Source: a virus
Lineage: Duplodnaviria; Caudoviricetes
DNA length: 55,437 bases
Reading direction: 5' to 3' (one strand)
IMG/VR virus record: IMGVR_UViG_3300037755_001185
Span: 1-55,437 of that record
Shown: positions 4,197 to 28,769 of the stretch, piece after piece
Layout of the letters: each line of letters begins with the position of its first letter
How positions within the stretch are numbered: the first letter of the stretch is position 1
Notes under the pieces: generated by a model
The model's database searches: none
What the model saw: only the letters and a program-made list of their open reading frames with translations
What the model was told of the DNA's origin: nothing
Position numbers and translations under genes: made by a program

Positions 4197-5892
4197 CGTC
4201 CGCCTCCTCAGCGAGTACCCCCAGGTACTTGAGGGCGTCGCGGATGTACTTGGGTACAGCGTTCGGCGCGAGTCCAGTGTCCTCCAAGATCGCTGCAAAC
4301 TCCTGCGCAAACCGACCCTTCGATACTTTTGTGGCCAGGAACAGCTCTAGGAACTTGCTCGCTTTGTCGTCTGGCGCATCAACTGCTTCTAGCGCGGCCT
4401 CGAGCTCGACTCCCTTCCTTGGATGAAGCACCTTGAACGCCGCAGTCATGTGCGGCAGCATGGCGGCGGAGCGAGCGAGTTCATGCTCGAAGGTAATCGT
4501 TGACATCTCGACTCGCAGGTTGCGCACATTTGCTTCCTGGTCCTTCAATCCTTTTGCTGTGTCCGATGGCTTCTCTCCGACCTCGGCCGCGTCACCGTCT
4601 GTGAGAATGACGACCGGCACACGAAGCCGGTCCTCTCCAAACAAGGGAATGAACGCGTTGAAGTTGATCCCGTCTGCGTTCAACACGGTCACGGCCGACT
4701 TTTTCAGATTGCCACCGGCTATTCTGGTCAACACAGGAAGCAGCAGCGCCTCTGCAATCCCCTCGACCATCAGAATGCGCCTTGCGAAGAACAACTCGCC
4801 GCGCGTCGCGTCGAGATACCGCTGCAGCTTCTTCTTGATCTTGTCCTCAATGCCAATCATGCAGACCGACACGGCGGACACCTTGTTGTAAGCCTCGTGC
4901 ACCGACACGACAGAATCGATCGGGGCTTGGCTCGCCAGGATGGGAGAGTGGCTGCTGGCGATGACCTGCACCTCGTTGCCTTCTTGATTGCTGGCGACCT
5001 CCGCCAAATGCCTGAGAAGGAGCATCTGCAATTGTGGATGCAGGTGCGCTTCGGGCTCCTCAACGAGGATTGATCGGAATGAGAACTGGGCGCTCCGGCG
5101 GAGTGTGCCCAGAGTCGCCGATGTGAAGATCAGGTTGTTGTAGCCGAGCCCATTGAGCGCGAACGGGAGCCCATCAATCTGAGGCTGCAATCCCGCGATG
5201 ATGCGCCGGAAGGTCGGGTCAGTGAAGATCAACTCGGTCTTTTGAGCGAGCTCGCCACCGGCGATAGCAGTCATCTGCGCATTGATATCGCCTCTGGCAT
5301 CTTCGACCGGCTTCAGTTTACGGATCTCCTCGTTTGCTCTCTTGGCGATCACTTCGAAATCCGCGTGTTGTTCCTCCTTAGTGAGGCATTCGATGAGCCG
5401 GGACACCTGCGAGTGTTGACCGGGTCGCAGGCCTCGTTCTGGGTCACGGAGCGGCTGCAAATAGATCGTCGCAACTCGGTCGTAGTGATTCGATGGAAGT
5501 GAACCGCCTTCCGTTTCGCCTCCCCACATTTTCACATTGCAGCGGTTCGTCGTCTTATTGAACTCGACACGGGCATTGACCTGCACTTCGAACTTGCCAT
5601 CACCAATATCGACGAGGCACTCTTGGAAGTGGACTTCGTCATCGTCCTCGAGTCCAGTGAACCTACAGGAGATTTCGATTGGTGCGTGCTCGGTTCCGGC
5701 CCGGAAGTCATCCTCGGTCAGCCGGAGAGACTCGAAGTCCCGGCTTGAGAACAACATGAGGCGGAGTGCATCGATGATCGTCGTCTTGCCAGAGTTGTTC
5801 TCCCCGACCAGCACTGTCAGCCCGCGCGGGAAGCTCACGGTTAGCTCGTCGATCTTCCGGAAGTTGTGTATCTGCAGTTCACGTAGCCACAT
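4183..5892 (-). CDS. gajA: OLD-family ABC-ATPase/TOPRIM nuclease, Gabija GajA-like
   Basis: GENNSGKTT, VEEPEAHLHPQLQ, FFARRILMVEGIAE, LTDGD; directly upstream of the UvrD gene. Confidence 0.85.
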   Translation of the reverse strand: MWLRELQIHNFRKIDELTVSFPRGLTVLVGENNSGKTTIIDALRLMLFSSRDFESLRLTEDDFRAGTEHAPIEISCRFTGLEDDDEVHFQECLVDIGDGKFEVQVNARVEFNKTTNRCNVKMWGGETEGGSLPSNHYDRVATIYLQPLRDPERGLRPGQHSQVSRLIECLTKEEQHADFEVIAKRANEEIRKLKPVEDARGDINAQMTAIAGGELAQKTELIFTDPTFRRIIAGLQPQIDGLPFALNGLGYNNLIFTSATLGTLRRSAQFSFRSILVEEPEAHLHPQLQMLLLRHLAEVASNQEGNEVQVIASSHSPILASQAPIDSVVSVHEAYNKVSAVSVCMIGIEDKIKKKLQRYLDATRGELFFARRILMVEGIAEALLLPVLTRIAGGNLKKSAVTVLNADGINFNAFIPLFGEDRLRVPVVILTDGDAAEVGEKPSDTAKGLKDQEANVRNLRVEMSTITFEHELARSAAMLPHMTAAFKVLHPRKGVELEAALEAVDAPDDKASKFLELFLATKVSKGRFAQEFAAILEDTGLAPNAVPKYIRDALKYLGVLAEEADDAID

Positions 5893-6691
5893 CTATGTCC
5901 TCCGTTCTACCGTCGATACTCATGCTGTCACCGCCTTTCGTTGCTTTCCGAGTAGCGGCGTCTGCGAGGACGCTGTCGACCGCTCGGGGGAACGGATACA
6001 CCGCCTGCTTGTGCGCATGGCTATTGAAGCTCAGGCTCTTCGCGCGAGCGTGCCCAAGCTGCCGCAGGCTGCTGAAGATCGCAGCCGCAGCTCCTTCTTC
6101 CGCGTTGATCGCGCGGAACTCGTGCTTGGCGCAATGCCGAGGCATACCGCGTGACGCATCCACACACTCAAGAATCGCACGTTCGAATTTGGTGAAGTGC
6201 ATCGGATCGGTTCGTCCAGCGGGGCCAACTACGAAGGACGTCACGATCCGGCCCCCGATCGTACAAACGTGTAAACGGAGAGCGTGAGAGCGCGAGAGTC
6301 CGGGCGGGTTCGGCCCGGATTCGGGGCGTTCTGATCGGGCCCCTCGGCTCTCCGTCCAAAGCCGAGAGCGCGAAACCCTCGCGGCGGGGTCGCCAAGGGG
6401 CCAATCTGCGCCGCTCGCTCTGTAAACGACACGGCCCCCGTCGCCTTTGACGGAGGCCGGGAACTCCCCAGAACGAACCCTCTTCGAACCGCTCTCGGAT
6501 CGTCCATCCGGTTTACCAGAGGTCCAGCATACGTCATCGCTGTTAAAGATGTTGGCGATCTGAGATCGCAGATGCCCACAAGGTGGGAAAATCCGCCAAA
6601 TACTGCTAATGTCTGCTCAACCCCGTCGCCTTCGAACACTGGACAGGCACGGCGGTTTGGCGAATGGAACGGGCTTGCTCAGGAGATGATC

Positions 6692-6940
6692 ATGGCGGCG
6701 CCATCCGAGGACATCATGACGATCGAGGCTCTCGCGGCGTATCTGCAGATCTCGAAGTCCACACTCTACAAGCTGGTCCAGGACGGCAGACTGCCCGGCC
6801 AGAAGGTCGGCAAGCGGTGGCGATTCCACAAGGAGGCGATCGACCAGTGGCTGAAACAGCACCCTGACGGTGTGAGGGAGACCGCATCTGAGAAGCCGAG
6901 GGACTCACCCAACTGGAAGCGGGAAGGAGCAGACGAATGA
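6692..6940 (+). CDS. Excisionase-like HTH (HTH_17) regulator heading the defence operon
   Basis: MTIEALAAYLQISKSTLYKLVQDGRLPGQKVGKRWRFHKEAIDQWL; AGGAG RBS. Confidence 0.85.
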   Translation: MAAPSEDIMTIEALAAYLQISKSTLYKLVQDGRLPGQKVGKRWRFHKEAIDQWLKQHPDGVRETASEKPRDSPNWKREGADE

Positions 6941-7095
6941 GCGATGCGAAACTCTTCCGAGTGGCCAGCCAGTATTGGGCGCATGCTTTGACCCTTCGCG
7001 GGTCCGGTGCCGACATCGCTGCGTTGTCGAGATCGATCGCCTACGCACAGGTTGAAACCCGAACACTGTTCACCATTCGCTGGAGGCTGCAATGA
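6937..7095 (+). pseudogene. 52-aa internally deleted SNF2 remnant (N-terminus fused to C-terminus), reading frame intact
   Basis: MSDAKLFRVASQYWAHALTLRGSGADIAALSRSIAYAQVETRTLFTIRWRLQ matches the SNF2 start (10478-10567) and end (13287-13316). Confidence 0.85.
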
Positions 7096-8324
7096 GCGAG
7101 ACCAACATCGTCGTGCATGATCTGCAACGCCAAGTGGGATACCTCCAGCAATGCCTATCCAGCGACAAGAAGCCCATTGGCCTCTTTCTTGGAGCGGGAT
7201 GCCCGATGGCGGTGCGGACGGGTACCGATGTGAAGCAGCCGCTTATCCCCGATATTGCCGGAATCACCAAGATAGTCTGTGACGAGTTGGCGAAGTGCAA
7301 CGAGTGCGGTCCTCTGCTCACCACCGTACAGGGGCACTTCACAAAGGACGGACGCAGCAGTTCGACCATCGAGGACATACTTACTCATATCCGTGCGCTT
7401 CGGGCCGTCGCGGGCCAAGACGACGTGCGTGGGTTGTCCGCCCAGAATCTTGACCAGTTGGACGAAGGCGTGTGCAGGCTGATCCACCAGGTCGCCGATA
7501 AGACGCTCCCTAATGCTGAGACGCCATACCACCGGATCGCCGCGTGGGTCGACGCTGTACGCCGTGAGAATCCAATCGAGGTATTCACCACTAACTATGA
7601 CCTGCTCATGGAGCAGGCCTTCGAGGATTGCTGCGTGCCCTACTTTGACGGCTTTGCTGGGGTGCGGAAGCCGTTCTTCGATCTTCGAGCGATGGAAGAG
7701 GACATGCTTCCTCCTCGATGGGCACGGCTATGGAAGCTGCATGGGTCCGTCAACTGGTATCAGGTCGCCAACAAGGGCGTGTTTCGCGGAACGACCTCAA
7801 ACGATGGCGATCTGAAGCGAGTGATCCATCCGTCGCACCTGAAGTATCAGGAAAGCAGGCGGATGCCGTATCTCGCCATGATCGACCGGCTGCGAGCATT
7901 CTTGAAACAGCCCACCGCCACGCTCATCATCTGCGGGTATTCCTTCCGGGATGAACATATCAACGAGGTCATCGTTCAGGGACTGCAATGCACGCAGACC
8001 GCCGTCGCCTTTGCGCTGATGTTCGACAAAGCCTCCATGTGCTCACAGGCGATCCCACTGGCAGCCAATCGCCCCAATCTGAACGTTCTCGCGCGGGACG
8101 GTGGAGTAATCGCAGGCAAGGAATCCATCTGGCCGGAGAACGACGCTGAGGCGGTGTCATCAGACACAGGGCGGTGGGTAACGTGGATGCCCGTAGACCC
8201 GGCGAACGACAAGGTCAAATGGCGGGCCGAGTTCGCACTTGGGGACTTCGCTGTCTTTGGGCAGTTCCTTCAGGAGGTGGTTGGCGTGGTCCGACAGGCA
8301 ATGGAGGTGCCCAGTGGCAAGTAG
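7092..8324 (+). CDS. SIR2-like (SIR2_2) NADase of a SIR2-HerA defence system
   Basis: FLGAGC, FTTNYDLLME, KLHGSVNW, CGYSFRDEHIN. Confidence 0.9.
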   Translation: MSETNIVVHDLQRQVGYLQQCLSSDKKPIGLFLGAGCPMAVRTGTDVKQPLIPDIAGITKIVCDELAKCNECGPLLTTVQGHFTKDGRSSSTIEDILTHIRALRAVAGQDDVRGLSAQNLDQLDEGVCRLIHQVADKTLPNAETPYHRIAAWVDAVRRENPIEVFTTNYDLLMEQAFEDCCVPYFDGFAGVRKPFFDLRAMEEDMLPPRWARLWKLHGSVNWYQVANKGVFRGTTSNDGDLKRVIHPSHLKYQESRRMPYLAMIDRLRAFLKQPTATLIICGYSFRDEHINEVIVQGLQCTQTAVAFALMFDKASMCSQAIPLAANRPNLNVLARDGGVIAGKESIWPENDAEAVSSDTGRWVTWMPVDPANDKVKWRAEFALGDFAVFGQFLQEVVGVVRQAMEVPSGK

Positions 8325-10182
8325 TCCAACCTATCTGGGGACCGTGCAAGACGTCCAGGGAGCGACGATCAGCATCGCCCTCGACAAGGACACAGTGTCT
8401 GGGTTGGCCTTTATCGATGGGCACGGATACCGCATTGGCCAGATTGGCAGCTTTGTTCGCATCGGGATTGGATTTGTCGACCTCTTCGGAATCGTGTCGC
8501 AAGTCGGCGCTGGAGCTGTTCCCGAAGCCTTGGCCAAGGTCGAACCGTACGGTTATCGTTGGCTGAAGGTTCAGCTCGTTGGCGAGGGTCAGCGATCAGG
8601 TGAGTTCAAGCGCGGAATTTCCCAGTATCCAACCATCGGCGATGAGGCCCACCTTGTAACTGAGCAGGACTTGACCCGTATTTATGGCAGGCCAGACGCA
8701 CCGAACTTCGTCCGGATAGGCAACCTCGCAAGTGCGGAGTCCATCCCAGCCCTGGTGGATATTGATCGGCTCATCACCCGCCACAGCGCTGTCGTCGGCA
8801 CGACTGGCGCGGGCAAATCCACCACGGTTGCCAATCTTCTTGCCGCGCTCTCTGATCCCGACCGGTTTCCATCGTCGCGCATCATCGTTCTCGACATCCA
8901 CGGCGAGTACCACGCCGCGTTGAGTGATCGGGCAACGATCTTTCGGGTCAACGCAGATGAGAAACGAGGTGAGCAGCCGCTCTTTATTCCCTACTGGGCG
9001 CTGAGTCTTGACGAGCTTCTTCGTGTTACGCCGTTCCGGGGATTGAGTGATGCCGACCGCGCTGCTCTTGTCGAGAAGATCAAGCAGTTGAAACTGGCTT
9101 CTATTGACGCACAGGCACGCAACGGCGTCACGGCCGACACGATGACCGTGGATACGCCGATTCCGTTCAGCATCCACCGTCTGTGGTATGAGCTGCACCG
9201 CTACGTCTGTTCCACCCATAATGCGCCAGGAGCCAATCAAAGCGATGCCACAGAGGCCATTGAGCCCGGAACGGATGGACAGCCGATGCTCGGCGACATC
9301 ATGAATGTGAATCCGCCGCGATACCGCCCGATTACATCGGGCGGCTCCAACCGCGTCTATCTCAGTGGTGCCCCGCTCAACATCCGCCGCCAGATTCTGG
9401 CCACGGAATCACTTCTGCGGGATACACGGTATGACTTCATGTTTCGGCCTGGCCCTTGGTGTCCCAATCCGACTCTTCAGACTCTTGATGCTCAACCCGC
9501 ACAGGACCTCGATGCGCTGATTAGATCGTGGGTAGGCGGGGACAAGCCCATAACCATTCTCGATCTGTCCGGCGTTCCGGTGTCCATTCTGATGGACCTC
9601 ATTGGCGTGCTCATCCGCCTTCTTTTCGACGCGCTCTTCTGGGCGCGCTACCTTCCCGAAGGCGGTCGAACACGGCCACTACTCTTCGTCCTGGAAGAAG
9701 CACACGCCTATCTCAATGCCGGGAACGAGGGTGCGGCTTCCGCTGCGGCCCGCAGGATTGTCAAGGAAGGCCGGAAGTATGGCCTTGGTGCAATGATCGT
9801 CAGCCAACGGCCAGCCGAAATTGATCCAACCATCCTTTCTCAATGTGGCACGATGTTCGCCATGCGGCTGGCCAACACCACTGACCGTTCCCATGTCACC
9901 GCCACGGTGAGTGACAATCTTGAGGGCCTATTCAACATGCTGCCCACCCTGCGTACCGGCGAAGCCATCATAGTTGGTGAGGCCGTCCATCTGCCCCTGC
10001 GCGCACTGATTGATGCGCCAGCCAAGAACCGTCGACCGGATAGCCACGATCCGAAGATATACGACCCAGATGCCAATGGCGGCTGGAATCGCAAGAAGCA
10101 AGCTGAGGATTACGCTCGCGTCCTTGAGAAGTGGCGAAGCGAGAATGCCCGTTGCACAAACAGTCCTGGAGGTAACCCATGA
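8314..10182 (+). CDS. herA: HerA-family ATPase
   Basis: HAS-barrel-like N-terminus, GTTGAGKS, DIHGEY, LEEAHAY, KEGRKYG, SQRPAE; GTG start with GGAGG RBS. Confidence 0.9.
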   Translation: MASSPTYLGTVQDVQGATISIALDKDTVSGLAFIDGHGYRIGQIGSFVRIGIGFVDLFGIVSQVGAGAVPEALAKVEPYGYRWLKVQLVGEGQRSGEFKRGISQYPTIGDEAHLVTEQDLTRIYGRPDAPNFVRIGNLASAESIPALVDIDRLITRHSAVVGTTGAGKSTTVANLLAALSDPDRFPSSRIIVLDIHGEYHAALSDRATIFRVNADEKRGEQPLFIPYWALSLDELLRVTPFRGLSDADRAALVEKIKQLKLASIDAQARNGVTADTMTVDTPIPFSIHRLWYELHRYVCSTHNAPGANQSDATEAIEPGTDGQPMLGDIMNVNPPRYRPITSGGSNRVYLSGAPLNIRRQILATESLLRDTRYDFMFRPGPWCPNPTLQTLDAQPAQDLDALIRSWVGGDKPITILDLSGVPVSILMDLIGVLIRLLFDALFWARYLPEGGRTRPLLFVLEEAHAYLNAGNEGAASAAARRIVKEGRKYGLGAMIVSQRPAEIDPTILSQCGTMFAMRLANTTDRSHVTATVSDNLEGLFNMLPTLRTGEAIIVGEAVHLPLRALIDAPAKNRRPDSHDPKIYDPDANGGWNRKKQAEDYARVLEKWRSENARCTNSPGGNP

Positions 10183-10388
10183 ACAGAACGCCAGTGAGTT
10201 CGTCATACGCCGCTTCGGTCGGCTACGACGCGAACACAACGACTCTTGAAGTCGAGCATCACGACGGGTCCGTATACCAATACTTCGACATTCCAGAAAC
10301 TGTGTATCGAGAGTTGATGCAGGCAAGCTCATTCGGGGCATTCATGCATACCGAAATCAGAGACCAATACCGATACACGAAGGTTTGA
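10179..10388 (+). CDS. KTSC domain protein
   Basis: RTPVSSS..SVGYD..TLEVE..G.VYQYFDIPETVYRELMQASSFGAF..IRDQY. Confidence 0.85.
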   Translation: MNRTPVSSSYAASVGYDANTTTLEVEHHDGSVYQYFDIPETVYRELMQASSFGAFMHTEIRDQYRYTKV

Positions 10389-10393
10389 AAAGA

Positions 10394-10434
10394 ATGACGA
10401 GACAGAACTCGAACTGATATGGATCGGCAACGAG
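10394..10434 (+). pseudogene. Scar of a Type III Mod gene 5' end
   Basis: ATG-ACG-AGA-CAG, then (1-nt shift) LELIWIGNE; 22/27 nt identical to Mod LELTWIGKE at 16236-16262. Confidence 0.6.
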
Positions 10435-10460
10435 ATCGAAAGGAGCTTTGAAGAGAACTG

Positions 10461-13316
10461 ATGAGCACCGAGTACCACAGCCAGTATTGGGCGCATGCCT
10501 TGACCCTTCGCGGGTCCGGTGGCGACATTGCTGCGCTGTCGAGATCGATCGCCAACGCACGAGTTGACCTGAATCCGCACCAAGTGGATGCGGCACTGTT
10601 TGCGCTGCGATCACCACTGACAAGGGGAGCGATTCTGGCAGACGAAGTGGGCCTGGGTAAGACAATCGAAGCAGGGATCGTCTTGGCACAGCGATGGGCG
10701 GAACGCCGACGGCGGATCCTCCTGATCATGCCCGCAATGCTTCGAAAGCAATGGCAACAGGAACTGTCCGAGAAGTTCTATCTGCCGTCCGTCATCCTCG
10801 ATACCAAGATGTTCAATCTGGCGCGCAAGAATGGCACCGTTAACCCCTTTGAACAACGCGACAAGGTGATCATCTGCTCGTACCACTTCGCATCAGCGAA
10901 GCATGCCGAGATCGCACGGGTTCCGTGGGATCAAGTCGTGATCGATGAGGCCCATCGCATGCGGAATGTGTACCGCTCTCAAAACCGCGTCGATCCACTC
11001 GCGAAGAAGTCGATGGCCCACAAGATCGCCGATGCGTGTGGGCACGCGCCGCAACTATTGCTCACGGCTACTCCGCTGCAGAACTCCCTCATGGAGCTCT
11101 ACGGACTGGTCAGCCTCGTTGATCCGCATGTATTCGGCGATGTGGCGTCGTTCCGTGAACAGTTTGTCAGGTCGACCGACACCGAACTCCGGGACACCGA
11201 TCTCAAGCAGAGACTTGCACCACTCTGTATCCGAAGTCTGCGAAAGCAGGTCACGGAGTACGTGCCATTCACGAACCGCGTCCCCATCACACAGGACTTC
11301 CTGCCAACGGACGAGGAACAGCAACTCTACGACAGCGTCTCGGCGTATCTTCAGCGCGATTGCCTCATTGCGCTTCCATCCAGCCAGCGTCACCTCATCT
11401 CCCTTGTCCTGCGCAAGCTGCTGGCATCTTCAACGTTCGCCATCGGACGAACACTCCGAAGACTTGTGCATCGGTTGGAACACTTGGAGGAGGAGATTAC
11501 GCTCCTGGATGAAGAGGATGTCGAGGGATTCGACGAATTGGAAGACGAGTGGAGCAGTGAGAACGGCGAAGCAGATGACAATGCCTGCGACATCGACCTC
11601 GCCGAGTTGAAAGACGAACTCGATGAACTTCGTCGCTATGCGGACATGGCCGACAAGATCGAGCACAACGCCAAGGGTGCAGCGCTGATCCCCGCGCTCA
11701 ACTCGGCGTTAACGCATGCGACGGCACTCGGTGCAGACCGCAAGGCGGTCATCTTCACGGAGTCGCGCCGGACGCAGGAGTATCTCTTCGACCTGATGTC
11801 CAAGAGCGGGTTCGAGGATCAACTCGTGATGATCAACGGGTCGAACACCGATCCGAATTCCAGGGCGGTCTATGAACGGTGGGTCGCGGCCAATGAGGGC
11901 AGTGACAAGGTCACGGGTTCGCGGCCCGTGGACATAAAGGCCGCCATCGTGGATCACTTCCGTAACGACGCCACAATCATGATCGCCACCGAAGCCGCAG
12001 CGGAAGGCGTCAATCTGCAGTTCTGTTCGCTTGTGGTCAACTACGACCTGCCCTGGAACCCGCAACGGATCGAGCAACGCATCGGACGATGCCACCGCTA
12101 CGGACAAAAGCACGATGTCGTCGTGGTCAACTTCCTCAACCGAAACAACGAGGCGGACCAACGGGTCTTCCAACTGCTCAGTGAAAAGTTCCGGCTCTTT
12201 GACGGAGTGTTTGGCGCCAGCGACGAAGTACTCGGCGCTTTGGAATCAGGCGTCGATATCGAACGCCGCATCGCCCAGGTGTACCAGACCTGTCGGACGA
12301 GTGGTGAGATCACAGCGGCCTTCGACATGCTGCAGGCGGAACTGGACGATCAGATCCAGGCCAAGATGCAATCCACCCGCCGTGTGCTGCTCGAGCACTT
12401 CGATGAGGATGTCCGGTCCCGGCTGCGGGCAAGCCAGGAGAAAACGATTGCCAGTCTTTCCCAGCGGGAGCGTTGGCTGTTCGATCTGACCCGGCACGAA
12501 CTCGATGGCGAGGCCGAGTTTGACCCGGCCACCCCCCGCTTTCGCTATCGGGGGAATCGGTCCAGTCACGGCTGGTACAACCTCGATTGGAAGGATGCGG
12601 AGAGCCGCAGCGAGCACTTCTACCGCCCGGACCATGCTCTGGCCGTTGAGATCATCGAGCAAGCCATTGATCGGGAGTTGCCTTCAGCAACACTGTCCCT
12701 CGACTACACCGGTTACGACTCCAAGATCAGCATTCTCGAAGACCTCATCGGCCAGTCCGGCTGGCTGGAGTTGTCGCGGCTCACGGTTGAAGCGCTCAAC
12801 ACGGACGAGTTTCTGATCTTCGCGGCCAGCTCCGATGCCGGGAAGGTACTCGATGAAGAGATCTGTCGGAAGCTGCTTTCTCTCCCCGCATCTCGCAATG
12901 GCCCGCCAGCGAGCACCGCTCCTGACCTGTCCGCGATTCGGCAGGCCGAGGTCGAGTTGAAGTTGGAGACGATCGACCAGAGGAATGGCGCCTTCTTCGA
13001 TGAGGAGGTTCTCAAACTGGACCGTTGGTCAGAGGATCTCAAGCAGGGACTCGAGCGGGAACTCAAGGAGCTTGACAGGCAGATTCGCGAAGCCCGAAAG
13101 GTGGCGGCGCTGGCGCAGTCGCTTCAGGACAAGCTCGATGCGCAGAAGGCCATTAAGGCACTCGAGCGTACACGAAATCAGAAACGCCGTGAGCTCTTCG
13201 ATGCGCAGGACGCCATTGATGCCCAGCGCGAAGAACTGATCACGAACATCGAGAAGCAGTTGAAGCACACCAGCAGCGTCCAGGACCTGTTCACCATCCG
13301 CTGGAGGCTCATATGA
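10461..13316 (+). CDS. SNF2-family helicase associated with Type III RM
   Basis: LADEVGLGKT, IDEAH, LTATPLQN, EGVNLQ, QRIGRCHRYGQ; C-terminal coiled coil. Confidence 0.92.
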   Translation: MSTEYHSQYWAHALTLRGSGGDIAALSRSIANARVDLNPHQVDAALFALRSPLTRGAILADEVGLGKTIEAGIVLAQRWAERRRRILLIMPAMLRKQWQQELSEKFYLPSVILDTKMFNLARKNGTVNPFEQRDKVIICSYHFASAKHAEIARVPWDQVVIDEAHRMRNVYRSQNRVDPLAKKSMAHKIADACGHAPQLLLTATPLQNSLMELYGLVSLVDPHVFGDVASFREQFVRSTDTELRDTDLKQRLAPLCIRSLRKQVTEYVPFTNRVPITQDFLPTDEEQQLYDSVSAYLQRDCLIALPSSQRHLISLVLRKLLASSTFAIGRTLRRLVHRLEHLEEEITLLDEEDVEGFDELEDEWSSENGEADDNACDIDLAELKDELDELRRYADMADKIEHNAKGAALIPALNSALTHATALGADRKAVIFTESRRTQEYLFDLMSKSGFEDQLVMINGSNTDPNSRAVYERWVAANEGSDKVTGSRPVDIKAAIVDHFRNDATIMIATEAAAEGVNLQFCSLVVNYDLPWNPQRIEQRIGRCHRYGQKHDVVVVNFLNRNNEADQRVFQLLSEKFRLFDGVFGASDEVLGALESGVDIERRIAQVYQTCRTSGEITAAFDMLQAELDDQIQAKMQSTRRVLLEHFDEDVRSRLRASQEKTIASLSQRERWLFDLTRHELDGEAEFDPATPRFRYRGNRSSHGWYNLDWKDAESRSEHFYRPDHALAVEIIEQAIDRELPSATLSLDYTGYDSKISILEDLIGQSGWLELSRLTVEALNTDEFLIFAASSDAGKVLDEEICRKLLSLPASRNGPPASTAPDLSAIRQAEVELKLETIDQRNGAFFDEEVLKLDRWSEDLKQGLERELKELDRQIREARKVAALAQSLQDKLDAQKAIKALERTRNQKRRELFDAQDAIDAQREELITNIEKQLKHTSSVQDLFTIRWRLI

Positions 13317-16222
13317 GCGGCAACAGCACACCATACAGTCCGCGCGGATCACAGTGGCATCGCTGGGATCTGCACGTGCATACTCCGTCTTCCTTTGATT
13401 ACCAAGACAAGAGCATCACAGACCAGCAAATCGTGGATTGCCTCGTGCAAGCGGGCTTGCGGGCCGTTGCTATAACCGATCACCACACCGTCGATGTTCT
13501 GCGGATCACAAAACTGCAGAAGCTGGGCGCGGACAAGTTGACAGTGTTTCCAGGCATTGAATTTCGGGGCGATCATGGCGGTGATCCGATCCACTACATC
13601 TGCATCTTTCCAGAGACCTGCAACCTCAATGATGTCTGGACGAAGCTTCAGGGGAAGTTGGGGCTGACGTCTACTGACATCGCGAGCAAGGGTGGTGATG
13701 ACAAGGTGTACGTGCCGATCGAGCAGGGAGCAAAGGAGGCACGAGCTCTCGGGGGTGTTGTATCGATCCATGCCGGTGCCAAGAGCAACTCCATCGAGGG
13801 GATCAAAAATAGGGAGCAGTTTCAGCAGCGCATCAAATACGACATTACCAATGAATGCGTTGACTTGATGGAGATTGGGCAGATCAAGGACATCGATCGG
13901 CATTACAAGACAATCTTCCCAGTTACTGGCTTGGAGAAGCCGCTCGTACTGTGTTCTGACAACCACAAGGTGACCGAGTATTCCACCAAATCGCCTCTCT
14001 GGTTCCGTGCCGATCCGACGTTTCGTGGGTTGCTTATGGTCCTGCGCGAACCGCGTGAGCGTATCTATATCGGTGATCGACCTCCCGAGTTGGTTCACGT
14101 CGAACAGAATCGTACGAAGTACATCAAATCCGTGTCGTTTCAGCGGCGAGCCACTCTCCCACATTCAGAGCAGTGGTTTGGCGACAAGGTTGAGTTTAAT
14201 TCTGGATTGGTGGCTATCGTTGGTAATAAGGGAAGCGGCAAGAGTGCTCTGTCAGACATACTTGGTTTGCTTGGCGCGACGAAGAATGGAGACGCGTTCA
14301 CTTTCCTGAACAAGGAGCGGTTCCGCCATCCGTCGAATAACCTCGCGTCGCATTTCGATGCCACGATTGAGTGGGAAGCGGGCGACACGGCGACGAAATG
14401 CCTTGCCGATGCCATCAAGCCCGAAGAAGTCGAGCGGCTGAAGTATCTCCCGCAGGATCACGTCGAGACCGTCTGCAATGAGCTGGCGGGCCTTGGCGAG
14501 GAAGGGTTCGAGCAGGAACTCAAGGCCGTAATTTTCTCGCATGTCCCGGAAGCGGAACGGCTGGGACACTCGACTCTCGACGACTTGGTTCGCTTCAAGA
14601 CTGGCGAGAAGCAAAAGAGGATCGATTCCCTACACAAACAGCTCCGCGATCTCAGTCGTTCCAGGGCACTGCTCGAAGCCCAGGCCGATCCCACGGTCCG
14701 GAAGGAACTAGCGGAGAAGATTTACCGGCGAAAACTGGAACTGGAGGCACATGATAAGGCCAAACCGGAGGCGGTCGTCGATCCCGCTGCGGATGGAAGT
14801 GCGCCAGCACCAGATGCGACCTTGCTTGGAGAACTGAAGACAGCGGAAACATCAAGGGTCACCCTCACCACTGACATCGCCAAACAGGCGGAAGCGTTGC
14901 GTGTAGCGGAACGCCGCAATGCCGTCGCGAAACGGCTCCTCGAGAAGCTCGACAACTTCGAAAAGGAATATGAGGTATTCAAGGCTTCGCTGACTGAGGA
15001 TGCTACTGAATTGGACCTTAAGCCGGACGAGTTGGTGTCCCTGACGATCACGCGCGGCAAGCCCGCCGGCATTCGGGACTCAGCCGCGACGGACTCAAAG
15101 GCGGTCAAGGACGCCCTTGACAAGGCCGAACCCCATGGGCTTCGGAAGCAGCTTGAGGGTGTCGAAGCAAAGCTCGCCGAACTTCAGACACAGCTCGACG
15201 CGCCAAATCGTGCCTATCAGAGCTACCTGAAGGCACTATCCGAATGGCAGACACAGCGGGTCGCCATTGAAGGCACTGCCACCGAGGTAGAGTCGCTGAA
15301 GGGGTTGGAACACAGCGTGACAGCCTTGGATGAACTGCCTGCCAAGATCGCGGCCGCGAGGGATCAACAGTTTTCTCTGGCACTGCAGATTCATTCTGAG
15401 AAGGACGACCAAGCAGCGGTCTATCGGAATCTATATTCGGCTGTTCAGGGGTTCATTGACTCCCATGTGCTGGCAAAAGATAAGCTAAAGCTCGAGTTCC
15501 GCACAGAGTTGACGAGCGAGGATTTCCCCGGACGGCTACTTGGTGCCCTGGCGCTGAACCGAAAAGGTAGCTTCATGGGTGTTGACGAAGGACGAGCCAA
15601 GGCAGAGTCGTTTGTTCAGGCGACCAACTGGGAGGACGCTTCTTCGTTGAAGGCATTCCTTACAGGTGTCGACGAGGCGCTCCATACGGATCAACGCGAG
15701 GGACAAGGCGGTCCCGTTCAACTGAAGGATCAACTCGCCAAAGGCCGGAAGCCCGAGGAGGTCTTCGACACTGTCTACGGGCTGGAGTACATCCGGCCGC
15801 GATACATCCTTCGGTGGGAAGGCAAGGACTTGTCGATGCTGTCGCCGGGAGAACGCGGGACGCTGCTCTTGGTGTTCTACCTGCTGATCGACAAGAGTGA
15901 TCTGCCCCTCATCATCGATCAACCCGAAGGCAACCTCGACAACCACACGGTTGCCAAGGTGCTTGTCGAGTGCATCAAGGAAGCCCGCAAGCGCCGCCAA
16001 GTGTTCATTGTAACGCACAATCCCAACTTGGCCGTCGTGTGTGACGCCGACCAGATCGTTCACGCGGAAATGGACAAGACCAACAGGAACACGATCACCT
16101 ATACGACCGGTTCGCTTGAGAATCCGAATATGAGCCAATACGTGACCGACGTGCTGGAAGGCACCCTCTGGGCCTTCCGTGTCCGAGACAAGAAGTACTC
16201 CGTGGGGGAAAGGAATGCCTAA
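13313..16222 (+). CDS. PHP phosphoesterase fused to SMC/ABC-type ATPase (TrlF/Ppl-like defence protein)
   Basis: WDLHVHTP, ITDHH, CSDNH (PHP); GNKGSGKS, coiled coil, LSPGERG, IIDQPEGNLDN, VTHNPN. Confidence 0.85.
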   Translation: MSGNSTPYSPRGSQWHRWDLHVHTPSSFDYQDKSITDQQIVDCLVQAGLRAVAITDHHTVDVLRITKLQKLGADKLTVFPGIEFRGDHGGDPIHYICIFPETCNLNDVWTKLQGKLGLTSTDIASKGGDDKVYVPIEQGAKEARALGGVVSIHAGAKSNSIEGIKNREQFQQRIKYDITNECVDLMEIGQIKDIDRHYKTIFPVTGLEKPLVLCSDNHKVTEYSTKSPLWFRADPTFRGLLMVLREPRERIYIGDRPPELVHVEQNRTKYIKSVSFQRRATLPHSEQWFGDKVEFNSGLVAIVGNKGSGKSALSDILGLLGATKNGDAFTFLNKERFRHPSNNLASHFDATIEWEAGDTATKCLADAIKPEEVERLKYLPQDHVETVCNELAGLGEEGFEQELKAVIFSHVPEAERLGHSTLDDLVRFKTGEKQKRIDSLHKQLRDLSRSRALLEAQADPTVRKELAEKIYRRKLELEAHDKAKPEAVVDPAADGSAPAPDATLLGELKTAETSRVTLTTDIAKQAEALRVAERRNAVAKRLLEKLDNFEKEYEVFKASLTEDATELDLKPDELVSLTITRGKPAGIRDSAATDSKAVKDALDKAEPHGLRKQLEGVEAKLAELQTQLDAPNRAYQSYLKALSEWQTQRVAIEGTATEVESLKGLEHSVTALDELPAKIAAARDQQFSLALQIHSEKDDQAAVYRNLYSAVQGFIDSHVLAKDKLKLEFRTELTSEDFPGRLLGALALNRKGSFMGVDEGRAKAESFVQATNWEDASSLKAFLTGVDEALHTDQREGQGGPVQLKDQLAKGRKPEEVFDTVYGLEYIRPRYILRWEGKDLSMLSPGERGTLLLVFYLLIDKSDLPLIIDQPEGNLDNHTVAKVLVECIKEARKRRQVFIVTHNPNLAVVCDADQIVHAEMDKTNRNTITYTTGSLENPNMSQYVTDVLEGTLWAFRVRDKKYSVGERNA

Positions 16223-17921
16223 CCACAAGATCAAGCTGGAACTCACCTGGATCGGCAAGGAGAACCGGCCGAATCTGGAGCCGCGGATTCTGATTGAAGC
16301 TCCAGAGAAGTCGTACCACGCCGCACACCGGGTCAGCGAGAGCGACCTCTTCGACAACCGGCTAATCTTTGGCGACAACCTCCTGGCCCTCAAGGCGCTG
16401 GAACAGGAGTTCACCGGCAAGATCAAGTGCATCTACGTCGACCCGCCGTTCAATACAGGACAAGCGTTCGACCACTACGAAGATGGGATTGAACACTCGC
16501 TCTGGTTGTCGCTCATGCGAGATCGAATTGCGTTGCTTTGGAAACTTCTCAGCCCCGATGGCACGCTGTGGGTACACCTTGATGACAACGAAGTGCACTA
16601 TCTGAAGGTGCTGATGGACGAGATATTCGGTCGTCAGTGCTTTGTGGCGTCGGTCGCATGGCGAGCCGCCGACTCGTCAAACAATGATGCGAAGCAGTTC
16701 TCTATCGACCACAACACGATTCTGGTCTACTCACGTGAGCCGGGGTGGTTGTCCCGCGCGTTGCCTCGCACAGATGAGGCCAACGCACATTACAAGAACC
16801 CAGATAATGATCCGCGCGGTCCATGGTTTATGGGCAACGTGTCGTCGCCGCATCCACGCGAAAAGCTTCAATATGACATGACAACGCCGTCGGGGACGAG
16901 TATCCCACACCCTCACAACGGCTGGCGTTGGAGTCGTGAGCTGGCGATGAAGAAAATCGAAGCTGGCCAGATCATCTTTGTCGATGACGATACTCGGATT
17001 GTTCATAAGACGTACCTTGCTGACCAGAAGGGATTGGCTCCCTCATCCATGTGGCATGATATCAAGCAGACCGGGCACAACAGACAGGCCAAGTACGAGC
17101 TCAAGAAGCTGTTCCCTGGCACTCCAACGACTGAGCTGTTTAGCACACCCAAACCAGAGCGACTGATTGAACGGGTGCTGCGGATAGCCACAGATGAAGG
17201 CGACTGGGTTCTCGATTCGTTTGCAGGCTCAGGCACTACGGGGGCGGTGGCGCACAAGTTGGGTCGTCGATGGGTGATGGTAGAACTTGGGGAGCACTGC
17301 CACGAGGTAATCGTCCCGCGTCTGCACAAGGTGATTGATGGCAGAGACAAGGGGGGTATCACGGATGCTGTCGAATGGAAAGGCGGTGGTGGATTCCGCT
17401 ACTACAAGCTCGGTCCGACGCTGATCGTCGAAGACGAATGGGGCAACCCCGTCATCAACAAGGCGTTCAACCCCGGCATGCTCGCCGAGGCGATGTGCAA
17501 GCTGGAGGGCTTCGAGTACGCACCGAGCGAAGACACCTATTGGATGCACGGTCACAGTTCCGAACAGGACTTCATCTATGTGACCACGCAGACGCTCACC
17601 CGCAGCCAGCTCCAACGACTGAGTGACGAGGTTGGCGAGAAGCGGAGTCTTCTGGTGATGTGCGCTGCCTTTCGAGTTCGCAAGGTCGAGGACCTCCCGA
17701 ACTTGACCGTGAAGAAGATTCCCAAGGCCGTCCTCAAGAAGTGCGAGTGGGGCCACGACGACTACTCGCTGGAGATCGCCAACCTTCCCGAAGCGCCGGC
17801 CATGTCCGAATCCGAGGAGGAGCCCAAGCCGGTCAAGGGCAAGCGGAAGTTCGGCAAGGGTAGGGCATCCGAGGCCAGTCTGTTCGCGGGCGCGGCCACC
17901 GATGATGCGGGAGGTGCATGA
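16215..17921 (+). CDS. mod: Type III restriction-modification methyltransferase Mod
   Basis: KLELTWIGKE start, GDNLLALK, YVDPPFN, TPKPERL, DSFAGSGTT. Confidence 0.9.
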   Translation: MPNHKIKLELTWIGKENRPNLEPRILIEAPEKSYHAAHRVSESDLFDNRLIFGDNLLALKALEQEFTGKIKCIYVDPPFNTGQAFDHYEDGIEHSLWLSLMRDRIALLWKLLSPDGTLWVHLDDNEVHYLKVLMDEIFGRQCFVASVAWRAADSSNNDAKQFSIDHNTILVYSREPGWLSRALPRTDEANAHYKNPDNDPRGPWFMGNVSSPHPREKLQYDMTTPSGTSIPHPHNGWRWSRELAMKKIEAGQIIFVDDDTRIVHKTYLADQKGLAPSSMWHDIKQTGHNRQAKYELKKLFPGTPTTELFSTPKPERLIERVLRIATDEGDWVLDSFAGSGTTGAVAHKLGRRWVMVELGEHCHEVIVPRLHKVIDGRDKGGITDAVEWKGGGGFRYYKLGPTLIVEDEWGNPVINKAFNPGMLAEAMCKLEGFEYAPSEDTYWMHGHSSEQDFIYVTTQTLTRSQLQRLSDEVGEKRSLLVMCAAFRVRKVEDLPNLTVKKIPKAVLKKCEWGHDDYSLEIANLPEAPAMSESEEEPKPVKGKRKFGKGRASEASLFAGAATDDAGGA

Positions 17922-17922
17922 A

Positions 17923-18948
17923 ATGGCCGATCCCACACCCCAGGGGCCACATGGCGAGTTCCTGCTCTACCAGACTGCCGACGGCCAGACCCGCGTCCAA
18001 TGCCTGTTTCAAGACGAGACGATCTGGCTGACCCAGCAACAGATGGCGGATTTGTTCGGCGTGGACAACTCCGGCGTCAGCAGGCACTTGCGGAATATCT
18101 TCGAGGCCGGCGAGCTGTCGCCGGGGGCAACCGTTGCAAAAATTGCAACGGTTCAGGTCGAGGGCGATCGGCGGGTCGAACGGGACATCGAACACTACAA
18201 CCTCGATGCGATCATCTCGGTGGGCTACCGGGTCAACAGCGTCCGAGGCACGCAGTTTCGCATCTGGGCGACGCAGCGGCTCAAGGAGTTCATGGTCAAG
18301 GGGTTCGTGCTCGACGATGAACGGCTCAAGCAGGGCAAGGCACTCTTCGGCAAGGATTACTTCGAGGAACTGCTCGAACGCATCCGTGAGATTCGAGCCA
18401 GCGAACGGCGGTTCTACCAGAAGATCACTGACATCTACGCCCTGTCGATCGACTATGACCGCAGCGCCCCGATCACCCGGGAGTTCTTTGCGACGGTTCA
18501 GAACAAGCTGCACTGGGCCATCACCGGCAAGACGGCGGCCGAGACTGTTCGGGATTCGGCCGATGCTGCGCTGCCTCACATGGGATTGACGACCTGGAAG
18601 AATGCCCCAGACGGTAAGGTGCTCAAGAGCGATGTTTCGGTGGCCAAGAACTACCTGAACGAAGCCCATATCAAAGAGCTCAACCGCATCATCTCGGCGT
18701 ATCTCGACCTCGCGGAGAATCGGGCCGAGCGCGGGCAGCTGATGAAGATGCAGGATTGGGCGAGATTCCTCAACAGCTTTCTGGAATTGGCGGACTACCC
18801 GATCCTCGAAGACGCGGGCAAAGTCAGCGCCCTCGAAGCCAAACTCAAGGCGGAAGGCGAATACGAAGTGTTTCGCAAGCAACAGGACCGCGATTACATT
18901 TCAGACTTTGACCGCGAGATCAAGCGGCTGGAAGGCGAGCAATCATGA
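17923..18948 (+). CDS. rhuM: RhuM-family (virulence RhuM) protein
   Basis: ETIWLTQQQMADLF, YNLDAIISVGYRVNS.RGTQFRIWAT, IREIRASERRFYQK. Confidence 0.9.
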   Translation: MADPTPQGPHGEFLLYQTADGQTRVQCLFQDETIWLTQQQMADLFGVDNSGVSRHLRNIFEAGELSPGATVAKIATVQVEGDRRVERDIEHYNLDAIISVGYRVNSVRGTQFRIWATQRLKEFMVKGFVLDDERLKQGKALFGKDYFEELLERIREIRASERRFYQKITDIYALSIDYDRSAPITREFFATVQNKLHWAITGKTAAETVRDSADAALPHMGLTTWKNAPDGKVLKSDVSVAKNYLNEAHIKELNRIISAYLDLAENRAERGQLMKMQDWARFLNSFLELADYPILEDAGKVSALEAKLKAEGEYEVFRKQQDRDYISDFDREIKRLEGEQS

Positions 18949-21656: not shown

Positions 21657-21757
21657 CAAACGTGCCATGGGCCACATCCGACCTGTACGACTTTCGCGAA
21701 CACGTAGATGGCGAGATGTGGTCAAGCTGACAGCCATGGAATTAGAAGGGGCAGTCG

Positions 21758-24172: not shown

Positions 24173-24205
24173 CGGAACTTTTCCGTTTACTGAACGGACA
24201 CTGTT

Positions 24206-28644: not shown

Positions 28645-28705
28645 CACTTCGCGCCCGGTCGGCTTGTGGTGAGTCCTCGCGACGACCACCCGACCGGCGC
28701 ACTTC

Positions 28706-28769
28706 GGCAGGGCCGGGCGACTGGGGCCTCATGAGCTCTGGCTGGTGGGTTCGACTCCCACACCTGCCA
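28706..28769 (+). ncRNA. tRNA-like element lacking a D-arm, CAU anticodon loop
   Basis: GGCAGG/CCTGCC acceptor stem, GGGGC-CTCATGA-GCTCT anticodon arm, GTGGG-TTCGACT-CCCAC T-arm, only 10 nt in place of the D-arm. Confidence 0.6.

Follow-up and report, generated by a model that had tools for sequence, protein, structure and literature searches.

Remnants of SNF2 and Mod genes at the borders of stacked defence cargo in a putative SNF2/Type III restriction operon of a phage record

The window analysed here is the complete IMG/VR virus record IMGVR_UViG_3300037755_001185 (55,437 bases). Its right half carries phage genes for helicase, primase, ParB-methyltransferase, terminase, portal, head protease and tape measure. 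A defence island with lower G+C content takes up the left 27 kb; it contains Gabija, SIR2-HerA, a TrlF-family ATPase, an SNF2 helicase with Type III restriction-modification (RM) genes, and RhuM. Gabija (GajA and GajB) lies on the minus strand of the island and is followed by a plus-strand array in the order HTH, a 52-codon open reading frame (ORF), SIR2, HerA, KTSC, SNF2, PHP-ATPase, Mod, RhuM-family gene and Res. Judged by its layout, this HTH-to-Res array is a single tightly packed operon built on an SNF2/Mod/Res core. It holds two defence cargos, SIR2-HerA-KTSC (cargo 1) upstream of the resident SNF2 and the PHP-ATPase (cargo 2) between SNF2 and Mod. We find that cargo 1 is bordered by remnants of the core genes themselves, a pruned second copy of SNF2 on its 5' side and a decayed Mod 5' end on its 3' side, and that similar scars recur in other loci.

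The 5' remnant is the mini-ORF at 6937 to 7095 (plus strand, like all features of the array below), a 52-amino-acid (aa) frame in which, as an earlier note on this DNA had claimed, a piece of the SNF2 N terminus is joined in frame to a piece of its C terminus. The resident SNF2, a DrmD-like helicase (PADLOC DrmD PDLC02619, 714 bits), lies at 10461 to 13316. The 5' piece of the mini-ORF (6966 to 7055, SNF2 codons 7-36) forms a 90-nucleotide (nt) direct repeat with 10478-10567 of the resident gene (83/90 nt, 92%). The 3' piece (7066 to 7092, the last 9 codons) matches 13287-13313 at 23/27 nt and is the coding part of a 42-nt direct repeat (7066-7107 and 13287-13328, 81%). In BLASTP comparisons, mini-ORF aa 11-40 align with SNF2 aa 7-36 (26/30 identical, E 3e-15) and aa 42-51 with SNF2 aa 941-950 (8/10 identical, E 0.002). 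Profiles built from relatives (the first 50 aa of SNF2, the last 30 aa of SNF2 and the first 50 aa of Mod) were also scanned against 63,246 six-frame pieces, and they return the SNF2 N scar with an E-value of 2.2e-6 and the SNF2 C scar with 3.5e-4. The ATGA overlaps described in the earlier note are present at both ends, between the mini-ORF ATG and the HTH stop and between the mini-ORF stop and the SIR2 ATG.

Both pieces are near copies of the resident gene, which bears out the claim of a second SNF2 copy of resident type. Against the corresponding stretch in 82 other homologues, the identity of the 90-nt piece does not exceed 72%, compared with 92% against the resident SNF2. These homologues include the metagenome locus L083, despite a near-identical protein there and the closest SIR2 (87%) and HerA (95%). 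The C piece resembles the end of the resident SNF2 and not the SNF2 ends of L083 or L085. Since both pieces match the resident, the pruned gene would have been an allele of it or a close copy, unless the two were homogenised by gene conversion. The 90-nt repeat contains exact runs of 21 and 22 nt. Its seven differing codons comprise three synonymous and four non-synonymous changes, so there is no clear sign of selection on the mini-ORF peptide.

At the positions that correspond to the two deletion endpoints, the resident SNF2 carries the hexamer GACCTG in the same frame (10566 and 13284), so that a deletion between them would be in frame. The proposed deletion in the old copy kept the first ~37 and the last 9 codons of SNF2, and with them the start overlap with HTH and the Shine-Dalgarno (SD) sequence and ATGA overlap for SIR2. 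The layout is not an assembly error, because independent contigs agree across both scar junctions. The likely source run was also assembled independently, and one contig of that assembly spans 6000-12064 with 0 differences; a run from another study yields exact contigs over 7063-7238 and 10328-10478. One contig of the source run (X1) joins 8517 to 15910 with 13 other letters between them and 85% likeness; it may belong to another organism's ATPase.

Cargo 1 follows the mini-ORF directly. SIR2 (7092 to 8324; PADLOC SIR2 PDLC04094, 440 bits; Pfam SIR2_2) and the HerA ATPase (8314 to 10182; PADLOC HerA PDLC04105, 514 bits) are overlapping neighbours and make up a SIR2-HerA system; alignment to the HerA of L083 places the likely HerA start at the GTG at 8314, which overlaps the SIR2 end. 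The KTSC-domain gene (10179 to 10388; Pfam KTSC, 80 bits) completes the cargo. Behind it, the 3' remnant occupies 10394 to 10434 and consists of an ATG, a 7-nt gap and Mod codons ~8-17. It belongs to a 39-nt direct repeat (10397-10435 and 16225-16263, 74%) with the 5' end of the resident Type III Mod methyltransferase (16215 to 17921; PADLOC MTase_III, 688 bits; Pfam N6_N4_Mtase). The similarity of this scar is weak on its own (E 0.83 in the wide profile scan). When only the 400 nt that precede each of 84 SNF2 starts are searched (1150 pieces), the E-value is 0.015, and the best match of the opposite-strand control has an E-value of 1.7. The junction of KTSC stop, 5 nt and ATG in the window also aligns with the intact KTSC-Mod junction of loci L084, L085 and L087.

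The Mod 5' scar that the earlier note placed after KTSC is present in part of the stretch. Its reading frame is lost, since the 7-nt gap directly after the ATG at 10394 puts it out of frame, and the last 26 nt before SNF2 are not Mod. Those 26 nt (10435 to 10460) are the resident SNF2's native leader. They agree with the leader of SNF2 in the viral contig L092 at 21/26 positions, a score that 0/300 shuffles reach, and end in a TGATG that overlaps the SNF2 ATG. This homology places the joint between the old Mod and the SNF2 leader at about 10434/10435. Leader homology to L002, L001, L083, L003, L005, L004 and L009 is not significant (shuffle p 0.27-0.99). An old Mod scar that we had read by eye upstream of the SNF2 genes of L002 and L092 was dropped after these shuffle tests. 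In L092, the ORF just 5' of SNF2 (155-427) is a chimera whose last codons are the SNF2 leader it has in common with the window; its first ~45 residues resemble the N terminus of an HsdM methylase of Type I.

The layout implied by the window scars exists elsewhere in intact form. A metagenome scan with the window SIR2 protein gave nine loci, and five of them (L083, L084, L085, L087 and L090) have the order SNF2-SIR2-HerA-KTSC-Mod that the earlier note had proposed looking for. In these five, SNF2 is upstream, either full or cut by the contig, Mod starts 9 nt after KTSC, and Res follows where the contig reaches that far. KTSC is 3' of HerA in all eight SIR2 loci long enough to show it. SIR2-HerA is also found within the SNF2-Mod slot of L023, and in L088 a Mod 5' scar precedes SIR2; L086, L089 and L091 are SIR2 loci outside an SNF2-Mod context. 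The SIR2 search of viral contigs found no relative. In L083, the locus closest to the window in SIR2 and HerA, a 303-aa ORF (86-997) ends 9 nt before the SNF2 start and, read from sequence by eye, appears tyrosine-recombinase-like.

The SNF2-Mod interval is variable across a much wider set of relatives. The genome collection contains 587 confirmed SNF2 relatives spread over many phyla, and the counts that follow cover the 80 loci kept out of these. Mod and Res are both found downstream of SNF2 in 49 loci, and Mod is found before the contig end in 7 more. In another 9 loci the Mod matches are weak or cut, in 1 Res is found alone, and in 14 neither gene is found; of these 14, 12 have less than 3.5 kb of downstream sequence. 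The SNF2-Mod gap could be taken from 56 loci: it is 6-146 nt in 7 of them, which are empty, and 520-6016 nt in the other 49, which are filled with diverse cargo. The Mod-Res gap also exceeds 300 nt in 15/49 loci, and cargo occurs upstream of SNF2, behind a relative of the window HTH gene, in L002 and L129. Tabulating the genes between SNF2 and Mod, a check that the earlier note had suggested, thus gives an exchangeable slot with known and candidate defence cargo. The interval is neither invariant nor devoid of SIR2-HerA, the two findings on which the earlier note would have given up its proposal.

The cargo ORFs of at least 100 aa number 85 and fall into 57 sequence clusters, most of them on the plus strand. 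They include LmuB-like ATPase with AIPR/AbiU, GmrSD (HEC-06), HEC-01A, OLD/GajA-like and Schlafen-like proteins, as well as DUF2130, DUF3800, Gabija, Thoeris ThsA, PD-Lambda-5 and, in L023, SIR2-HerA. Near-identical SNF2 3' ends can be followed by different cargo, as in L084 versus L085 and L087 (96%), L045 versus L090 (89%) and L019 versus L021 (81%). The junctions between the core genes are slots in which further defence genes are housed. The position immediately downstream of SNF2 is often taken by a DUF2130 gene (L018, L023, L040, L045, L054 and L083, the last as read from sequence), whose product may belong to the triad as an accessory instead of being free cargo.

Scars comparable to those in the window recur in this family. 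Mod 5' pieces lie inside the slot of five other loci and match the Mod of their own locus at 156/176 nt (L018), 108/122 nt (L045), 54/65 nt (L028), 60/62 nt (L053) and 38/44 nt (L054). The L053 piece is part of a 41-codon ORF (14860-14985), situated between two Schlafen-like cargo genes, in which Mod codons 1-20 run in frame into the final 18 codons of SNF2. The order SNF2 fragment, Mod scar and full SNF2 that characterises the window is found again in L025. Other mini-SNF2 scars, which the earlier note had recommended searching for, are represented by the proteins P0008 and P0009, SNF2 N::C fusions whose junction differs from that of the window. A search of viral contigs with P0008 found only L092, whose SNF2 is full-length. 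The 69-aa database ORF P0002 fuses an SNF2 start (~37 aa) to the last 34 residues of Res and looks as if the whole triad had been deleted in frame.

The Mod start is carried by 660 database proteins of 29-93 aa. In 49 of the best 120, the start is followed by a foreign tail of 10 aa or more, and short BLAST comparisons identify 5/49 tails as an in-frame Mod C terminus. Profile searches of 120 short Mod-N-terminal proteins found one such tail with the Mod C-terminal profile and none that matched the SNF2 or Res C terminus. Among 401 Planctomycetota genomes, 42 have the SNF2 start, and 16/50 matches lie in open frames of less than 600 aa, some of which may be contig ends. The examples fetched from this group comprise orphan SNF2 N-fragments, one internal deletion and one out-of-frame SNF2::Mod joint (L138); a hidden Markov model (HMM) scan of 10 Planctomycetota regions found no N::C fusion. 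Two of the orphan N-terminal fragments head other defence genes: that of L131 (5826-6212) precedes SspB/SspC genes, and that of L132 (5998-6522) precedes an HsdR-like gene with a 4-nt overlap. With similar scars in other loci and in database proteins, the interpretation that cargo is stacked with scars left behind holds.

The array is closely spaced throughout. Start and stop codons overlap by 4 nt at HTH/mini-ORF, mini-ORF/SIR2, HerA/KTSC, SNF2/ATPase and RhuM/Res, and there are longer overlaps at SIR2/HerA (11 nt) and ATPase/Mod (8 nt). The only sizeable gap, 72 nt from KTSC to SNF2, is the site of the Mod scar. A strong SD sequence (AAGGAG) is found 7 nt before the mini-ORF ATG. The retained SNF2 codons supply GGAGG, as part of TGGAGG, 5 nt before the SIR2 ATG, and the identical signal precedes the ATPase ATG at 13313. 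A scan of 5800-24500 gave 2 promoter-like matches where 6.0 were expected and 16 terminator-like matches where 14.5 were expected. The ideas of one promoter and of preserved translational coupling, both put forward in the earlier note, are predictions from gene spacing only.

Nine scar sites were found without regard to frame, and five of them are in frame or coupled: the window mini-ORF, with ATGA at both ends; L018, whose scar ORF ends with ATGA on the next start; L045, where the overlap is likewise on the next start but reads GTGA; L028, in which the scar is fused in frame with a cargo ORF; and L053, an in-frame chimera. The other four, the window Mod scar, L054, L088 and L025, are decayed or uncoupled. 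The scar examples from databases are biased towards in-frame cases. It is possible, although we put this forward tentatively, that the SNF2 3' and Mod 5' ends act as portable adaptors, which would provide both homology arms for swapping or stacking any defence cargo among related loci and translation signals for the gene that comes next, and which selection would keep as in-frame mini-ORFs once the remainder of a core gene is deleted.

We think it probable that two cargo alleles of one SNF2-Mod-Res locus, one with SIR2-HerA-KTSC and the other with the TrlF-family ATPase, were joined and that the old SNF2 was pruned in frame. SIR2-HerA-KTSC would originally have been situated between a resident-type SNF2 and a Mod, as it still is elsewhere. 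A second unit, composed of leader, SNF2, TrlF ATPase, Mod, RhuM and Res and closely related in SNF2, would then have been joined on, such that its left end, 26 nt 5' of the SNF2 start, met the old Mod at about codon 17. The most likely route would be recombination between two cargo alleles of the same locus, with one crossover in homologous downstream sequence and the other an illegitimate or very short-homology joint, an event of unequal crossing-over or of homology-facilitated illegitimate recombination. Mod and Res of the old unit would have been lost, and the redundant old SNF2 would have been cut by an in-frame internal deletion. Its frame and termini may have been kept since the downstream genes need them for translation. 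Only the left joint can be mapped; locating the right, homologous crossover would take donor and recipient sequences.

Several observations weigh against this history. No locus shows the un-pruned intermediate, in which SIR2-HerA would lie between two full copies of SNF2. The Mod scar is about equally similar to every Mod 5' end tried (35-38/50), including 37/50 with two indels to the resident Mod and 38/50 to L085 and L087, so that neither a donor nor the resident can be assigned as its source. It is also more decayed than the SNF2 pieces (13/50 versus 11/117 differences, Fisher p 0.008), which suggests that the scars may differ in age or constraint; separate events may have produced them, or gene conversion may have made the SNF2 pieces alike. 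Within the mini-ORF, the first 10 codons are unlike the SNF2 start, from which they differ by a 12-nt indel and substitutions (as read by eye), and may contain a further joint. The 10 nt at its internal junction (7056-7065) resemble neither side. The frame at the scars is equivocal as well: five in nine is above the one-third expected by chance and is not significant (binomial ~0.14), the L138 joint is out of frame, and selection for frame is accordingly suggestive, not significant. Finally, no scar is visible in L083, L084 and L023, although each of them stacks several cargo systems, so scar-leaving events would be one route to stacking and not the only one.

The earlier note had read the locus as a slot that was duplicated and pruned. 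The second SNF2 copy of resident type stands; it could stem from duplication in place or from the joining of two alleles. An in-place tandem duplication of SNF2, cargo and the Mod 5' end, with later replacement of one cargo by homologous exchange and pruning of the upstream SNF2, is in our judgement unlikely. It would fit the closeness of the SNF2 pieces to the resident gene (92%, as against at most 72% to any other), the order SNF2 remnant, Mod scar and full SNF2 in L025, and the 60/62 match of the L053 Mod scar to the Mod of that locus, which is what a fresh internal duplication would give. Compared with the joining of two alleles it requires an extra step, the replacement of the cargo. In addition, a Mod scar at 37/50 with two indels beside SNF2 pieces at 106/117 is unexpected if all were copied together and then drifted, and no locus with the same cargo twice occurs among the 56 + 9 slots examined.

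SIR2-HerA-KTSC could instead be the newcomer, brought in as a circular or linear cassette that entered through one crossover within the resident SNF2's 5' end and thereby duplicated this end. Such a cassette would have been a RecA-dependent portable unit made up of the leader and SNF2 5' piece, fused to the SNF2 3' piece, followed by SIR2-HerA-KTSC and a Mod 5' piece. The order SNF2 5' copy, insert, leader, SNF2 5' copy is the outcome of a Campbell-type integration, the exact runs of 21 and 22 nt suffice for homologous pairing, and the 3' piece of P0008 and P0009 resembles the SNF2 of SIR2-HerA loci such as L085. We nevertheless consider this course quite improbable, as the mini-ORF 3' piece in the window fits the end of the resident SNF2 (8/10 aa, 23/27 nt) and not the ends of L083 or L085, and no such cassette is seen free or in a second context.

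A different account of the mini-ORF is that it is kept for its peptide and not as a translational adaptor, for instance if the N-terminal 30 residues of SNF2 bind a partner or regulate. The SNF2 N terminus is the best conserved short stretch in the sub-clade, with near-identical residues in L083 at 72-80% nt identity; several independent short ORFs keep it; and the SNF2 pieces are less decayed than the Mod scar. A peptide role is very unlikely all the same, for four of the seven differing codons are non-synonymous, with no sign of purifying selection, the orphan SNF2 N-fragments range from 57 to 297 aa and contain frameshifts, as decay predicts, and scars of Mod and Res ends show the same behaviour. 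That the scars are chance matches or products of a chimeric assembly can hardly be true: many other repeats in the region are at least as good as the 39-nt Mod match (74%), which has a wide-scan E-value of 0.83, but the E-values and the 83/90 identity of the SNF2 pieces, together with the exact contigs over both junctions from another study's run, have already refuted this for the SNF2 pieces, and the restricted Mod scan (0.015 versus 1.7 in the control) and the alignment of the junction with intact loci speak against it for the Mod scar.

The remaining genes of the array have the following assignments. The first gene (6572 to 6940) encodes an HTH_17/excisionase-family DNA-binding protein (Pfam HTH_17, 63.6 bits) that also passes the cut-off of 28.8 for the NCBIfam 'excise' domain (63.4 bits). 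Its score against MAD1 in NCBIfam (67 bits) is below the equivalog cut-off of 80, and PADLOC returns mad3 and mad8 only as weak domain-level matches, so the array is not assigned to MADS. Cargo 2 (13313 to 16222) encodes a PHP-domain AAA/ABC-like ATPase. Its placement in the TrlF family comes from NCBIfam, where TrlF_fam_ATP scores 605 bits (cut-off 350) and Ppl_antiphage 125 bits (cut-off 1000); the Ppl match in PADLOC is likewise only 106 bits, and the protein does not qualify as a Ppl equivalog. A literature search on 'TrlF' returned unrelated spectroscopy papers only. The RhuM-family gene between Mod and Res (17923 to 18948, with an alternative start at 17902; Pfam Virulence_RhuM, 383 bits; PADLOC PDC-S05, 505 bits) is followed by the Type III Res helicase-nuclease (18945 to 21656; PADLOC REase_III, 798 bits; Pfam ResIII). 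Two large proteins come right after Res, at 21758-24172 (804 aa) and 24206-26425 (739 aa). They have no match in Pfam, PADLOC, NCBIfam or PHROG, have a C-terminal domain of ~110 aa in common (39% identity, E 1e-17), and may be unknown defence or accessory genes. A tRNA-Met (28692-28769) marks the border between the defence island and the replication genes.

The core of the array resembles two known systems. DISARM class 1 consists of the SNF2 protein DrmD, the methylase DrmMI and DrmA/B/C. The window SNF2 is closest to DrmD by profile (714 bits in PADLOC, 722 bits for NCBIfam DrmD_b), and it lies beside a Mod-type N6-adenine methylase. Unlike in DISARM, its NCBIfam DISARM_DrmD_b score of 722 bits is below the equivalog cut-off of 950, and its partner is a Type III Res (798 bits). 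None of the PADLOC-scanned proteins of 2439-26425, a scan that left out small ORFs, has DrmA, DrmB or DrmC as its main match, and the only DrmA match there is a secondary one of 125 bits to SNF2 itself. Mod (688 bits) and Res (798 bits) fit the Type III profiles strongly, as in classical Type III RM, and by family membership the pair is assigned to Type III RM. The difference from the classical systems is an SNF2 helicase as a constant upstream third partner (the full triad is present in 49/80 loci) and cargo in the junctions.

Defence hotspots between conserved flanks are known from temperate phages and satellites of the P2/P4 type. The present locus is like them in having exchangeable defence cargo between conserved flanks on a phage genome. 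It differs in that the flanks are defence genes of one operon and the borders fall at the very ends of coding sequences.

Extra defence genes embedded in multi-gene systems have been described as a basis for 'guilt-by-embedding' (Payne et al., bioRxiv 10.1101/2024.01.29.577857), where the main text leaves the origin of embedding open. The locus family described here has the same kind of architecture, with a conserved multi-gene host and nested, variable genes, known defence genes among them, mostly oriented like the host-system genes around them. The cargo families are also partly in common with that main text (HEC-01A, HEC-05, HEC-06/GmrSD, PDC-S05/RhuM and Gabija). A host composed of a DrmD-like SNF2 and a Type III Mod/Res is not named there, and the main text uses none of the words SNF2, recombination, remnant or truncated, although the supplements might list such loci. 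The scars of host genes at the cassette borders set the present locus apart from the embedded systems of that main text.

A parallel for the scars comes from the effector-immunity arrays of type VI secretion systems (T6SS), for which Kirchberger et al. 2017 (PMC5361080) proposed homology-facilitated illegitimate recombination that leaves remnants of displaced genes; they cite the same idea for Rhs loci (orphan Rhs and contact-dependent inhibition (CDI) modules). As these arrays are presented there, a module is added next to a conserved anchor gene by homologous plus illegitimate recombination, and old modules are kept while remnants are left. The window has this arrangement of a displacement array, since older modules are retained with remnants of displaced flanking genes beside a conserved anchor. 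In the T6SS/Rhs arrays, as described there, immunity genes are retained and toxins displaced, whereas here whole defence systems stay, and it is the helicase and methylase of the host system itself that are displaced or pruned. Also unlike the arrays in that account, some scars here remain as in-frame mini-ORFs with start/stop overlaps. In our literature searches, neither such scars nor cassette exchange turned up for embedded defence systems, and no description of an SNF2 plus Type III triad as an embedding host was met with. What appears to be new is the host system for embedding, together with sequence evidence for how its cargo is stacked.

The embedding of defence genes is used to discover new defence systems, and the scars described here are direct sequence evidence for one embedding route. 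By this route, cargo would travel with the ends of the flanking core genes and be stacked by recombination, after which the redundant core gene would be trimmed and its ends would survive. The triad of DrmD-like SNF2 and Type III RM genes is an added, widespread host that can be mined for candidate defence genes, and short ORFs built from gene termini may be usable as markers of past cassette turnover. The suggested rule is that natural deletions in such operons must stay non-polar. If the gene ends do act as portable adaptors, then coupled defence operons would hold a built-in, recombinase-free plug-and-stack system whose history is legible from its mini-ORFs.

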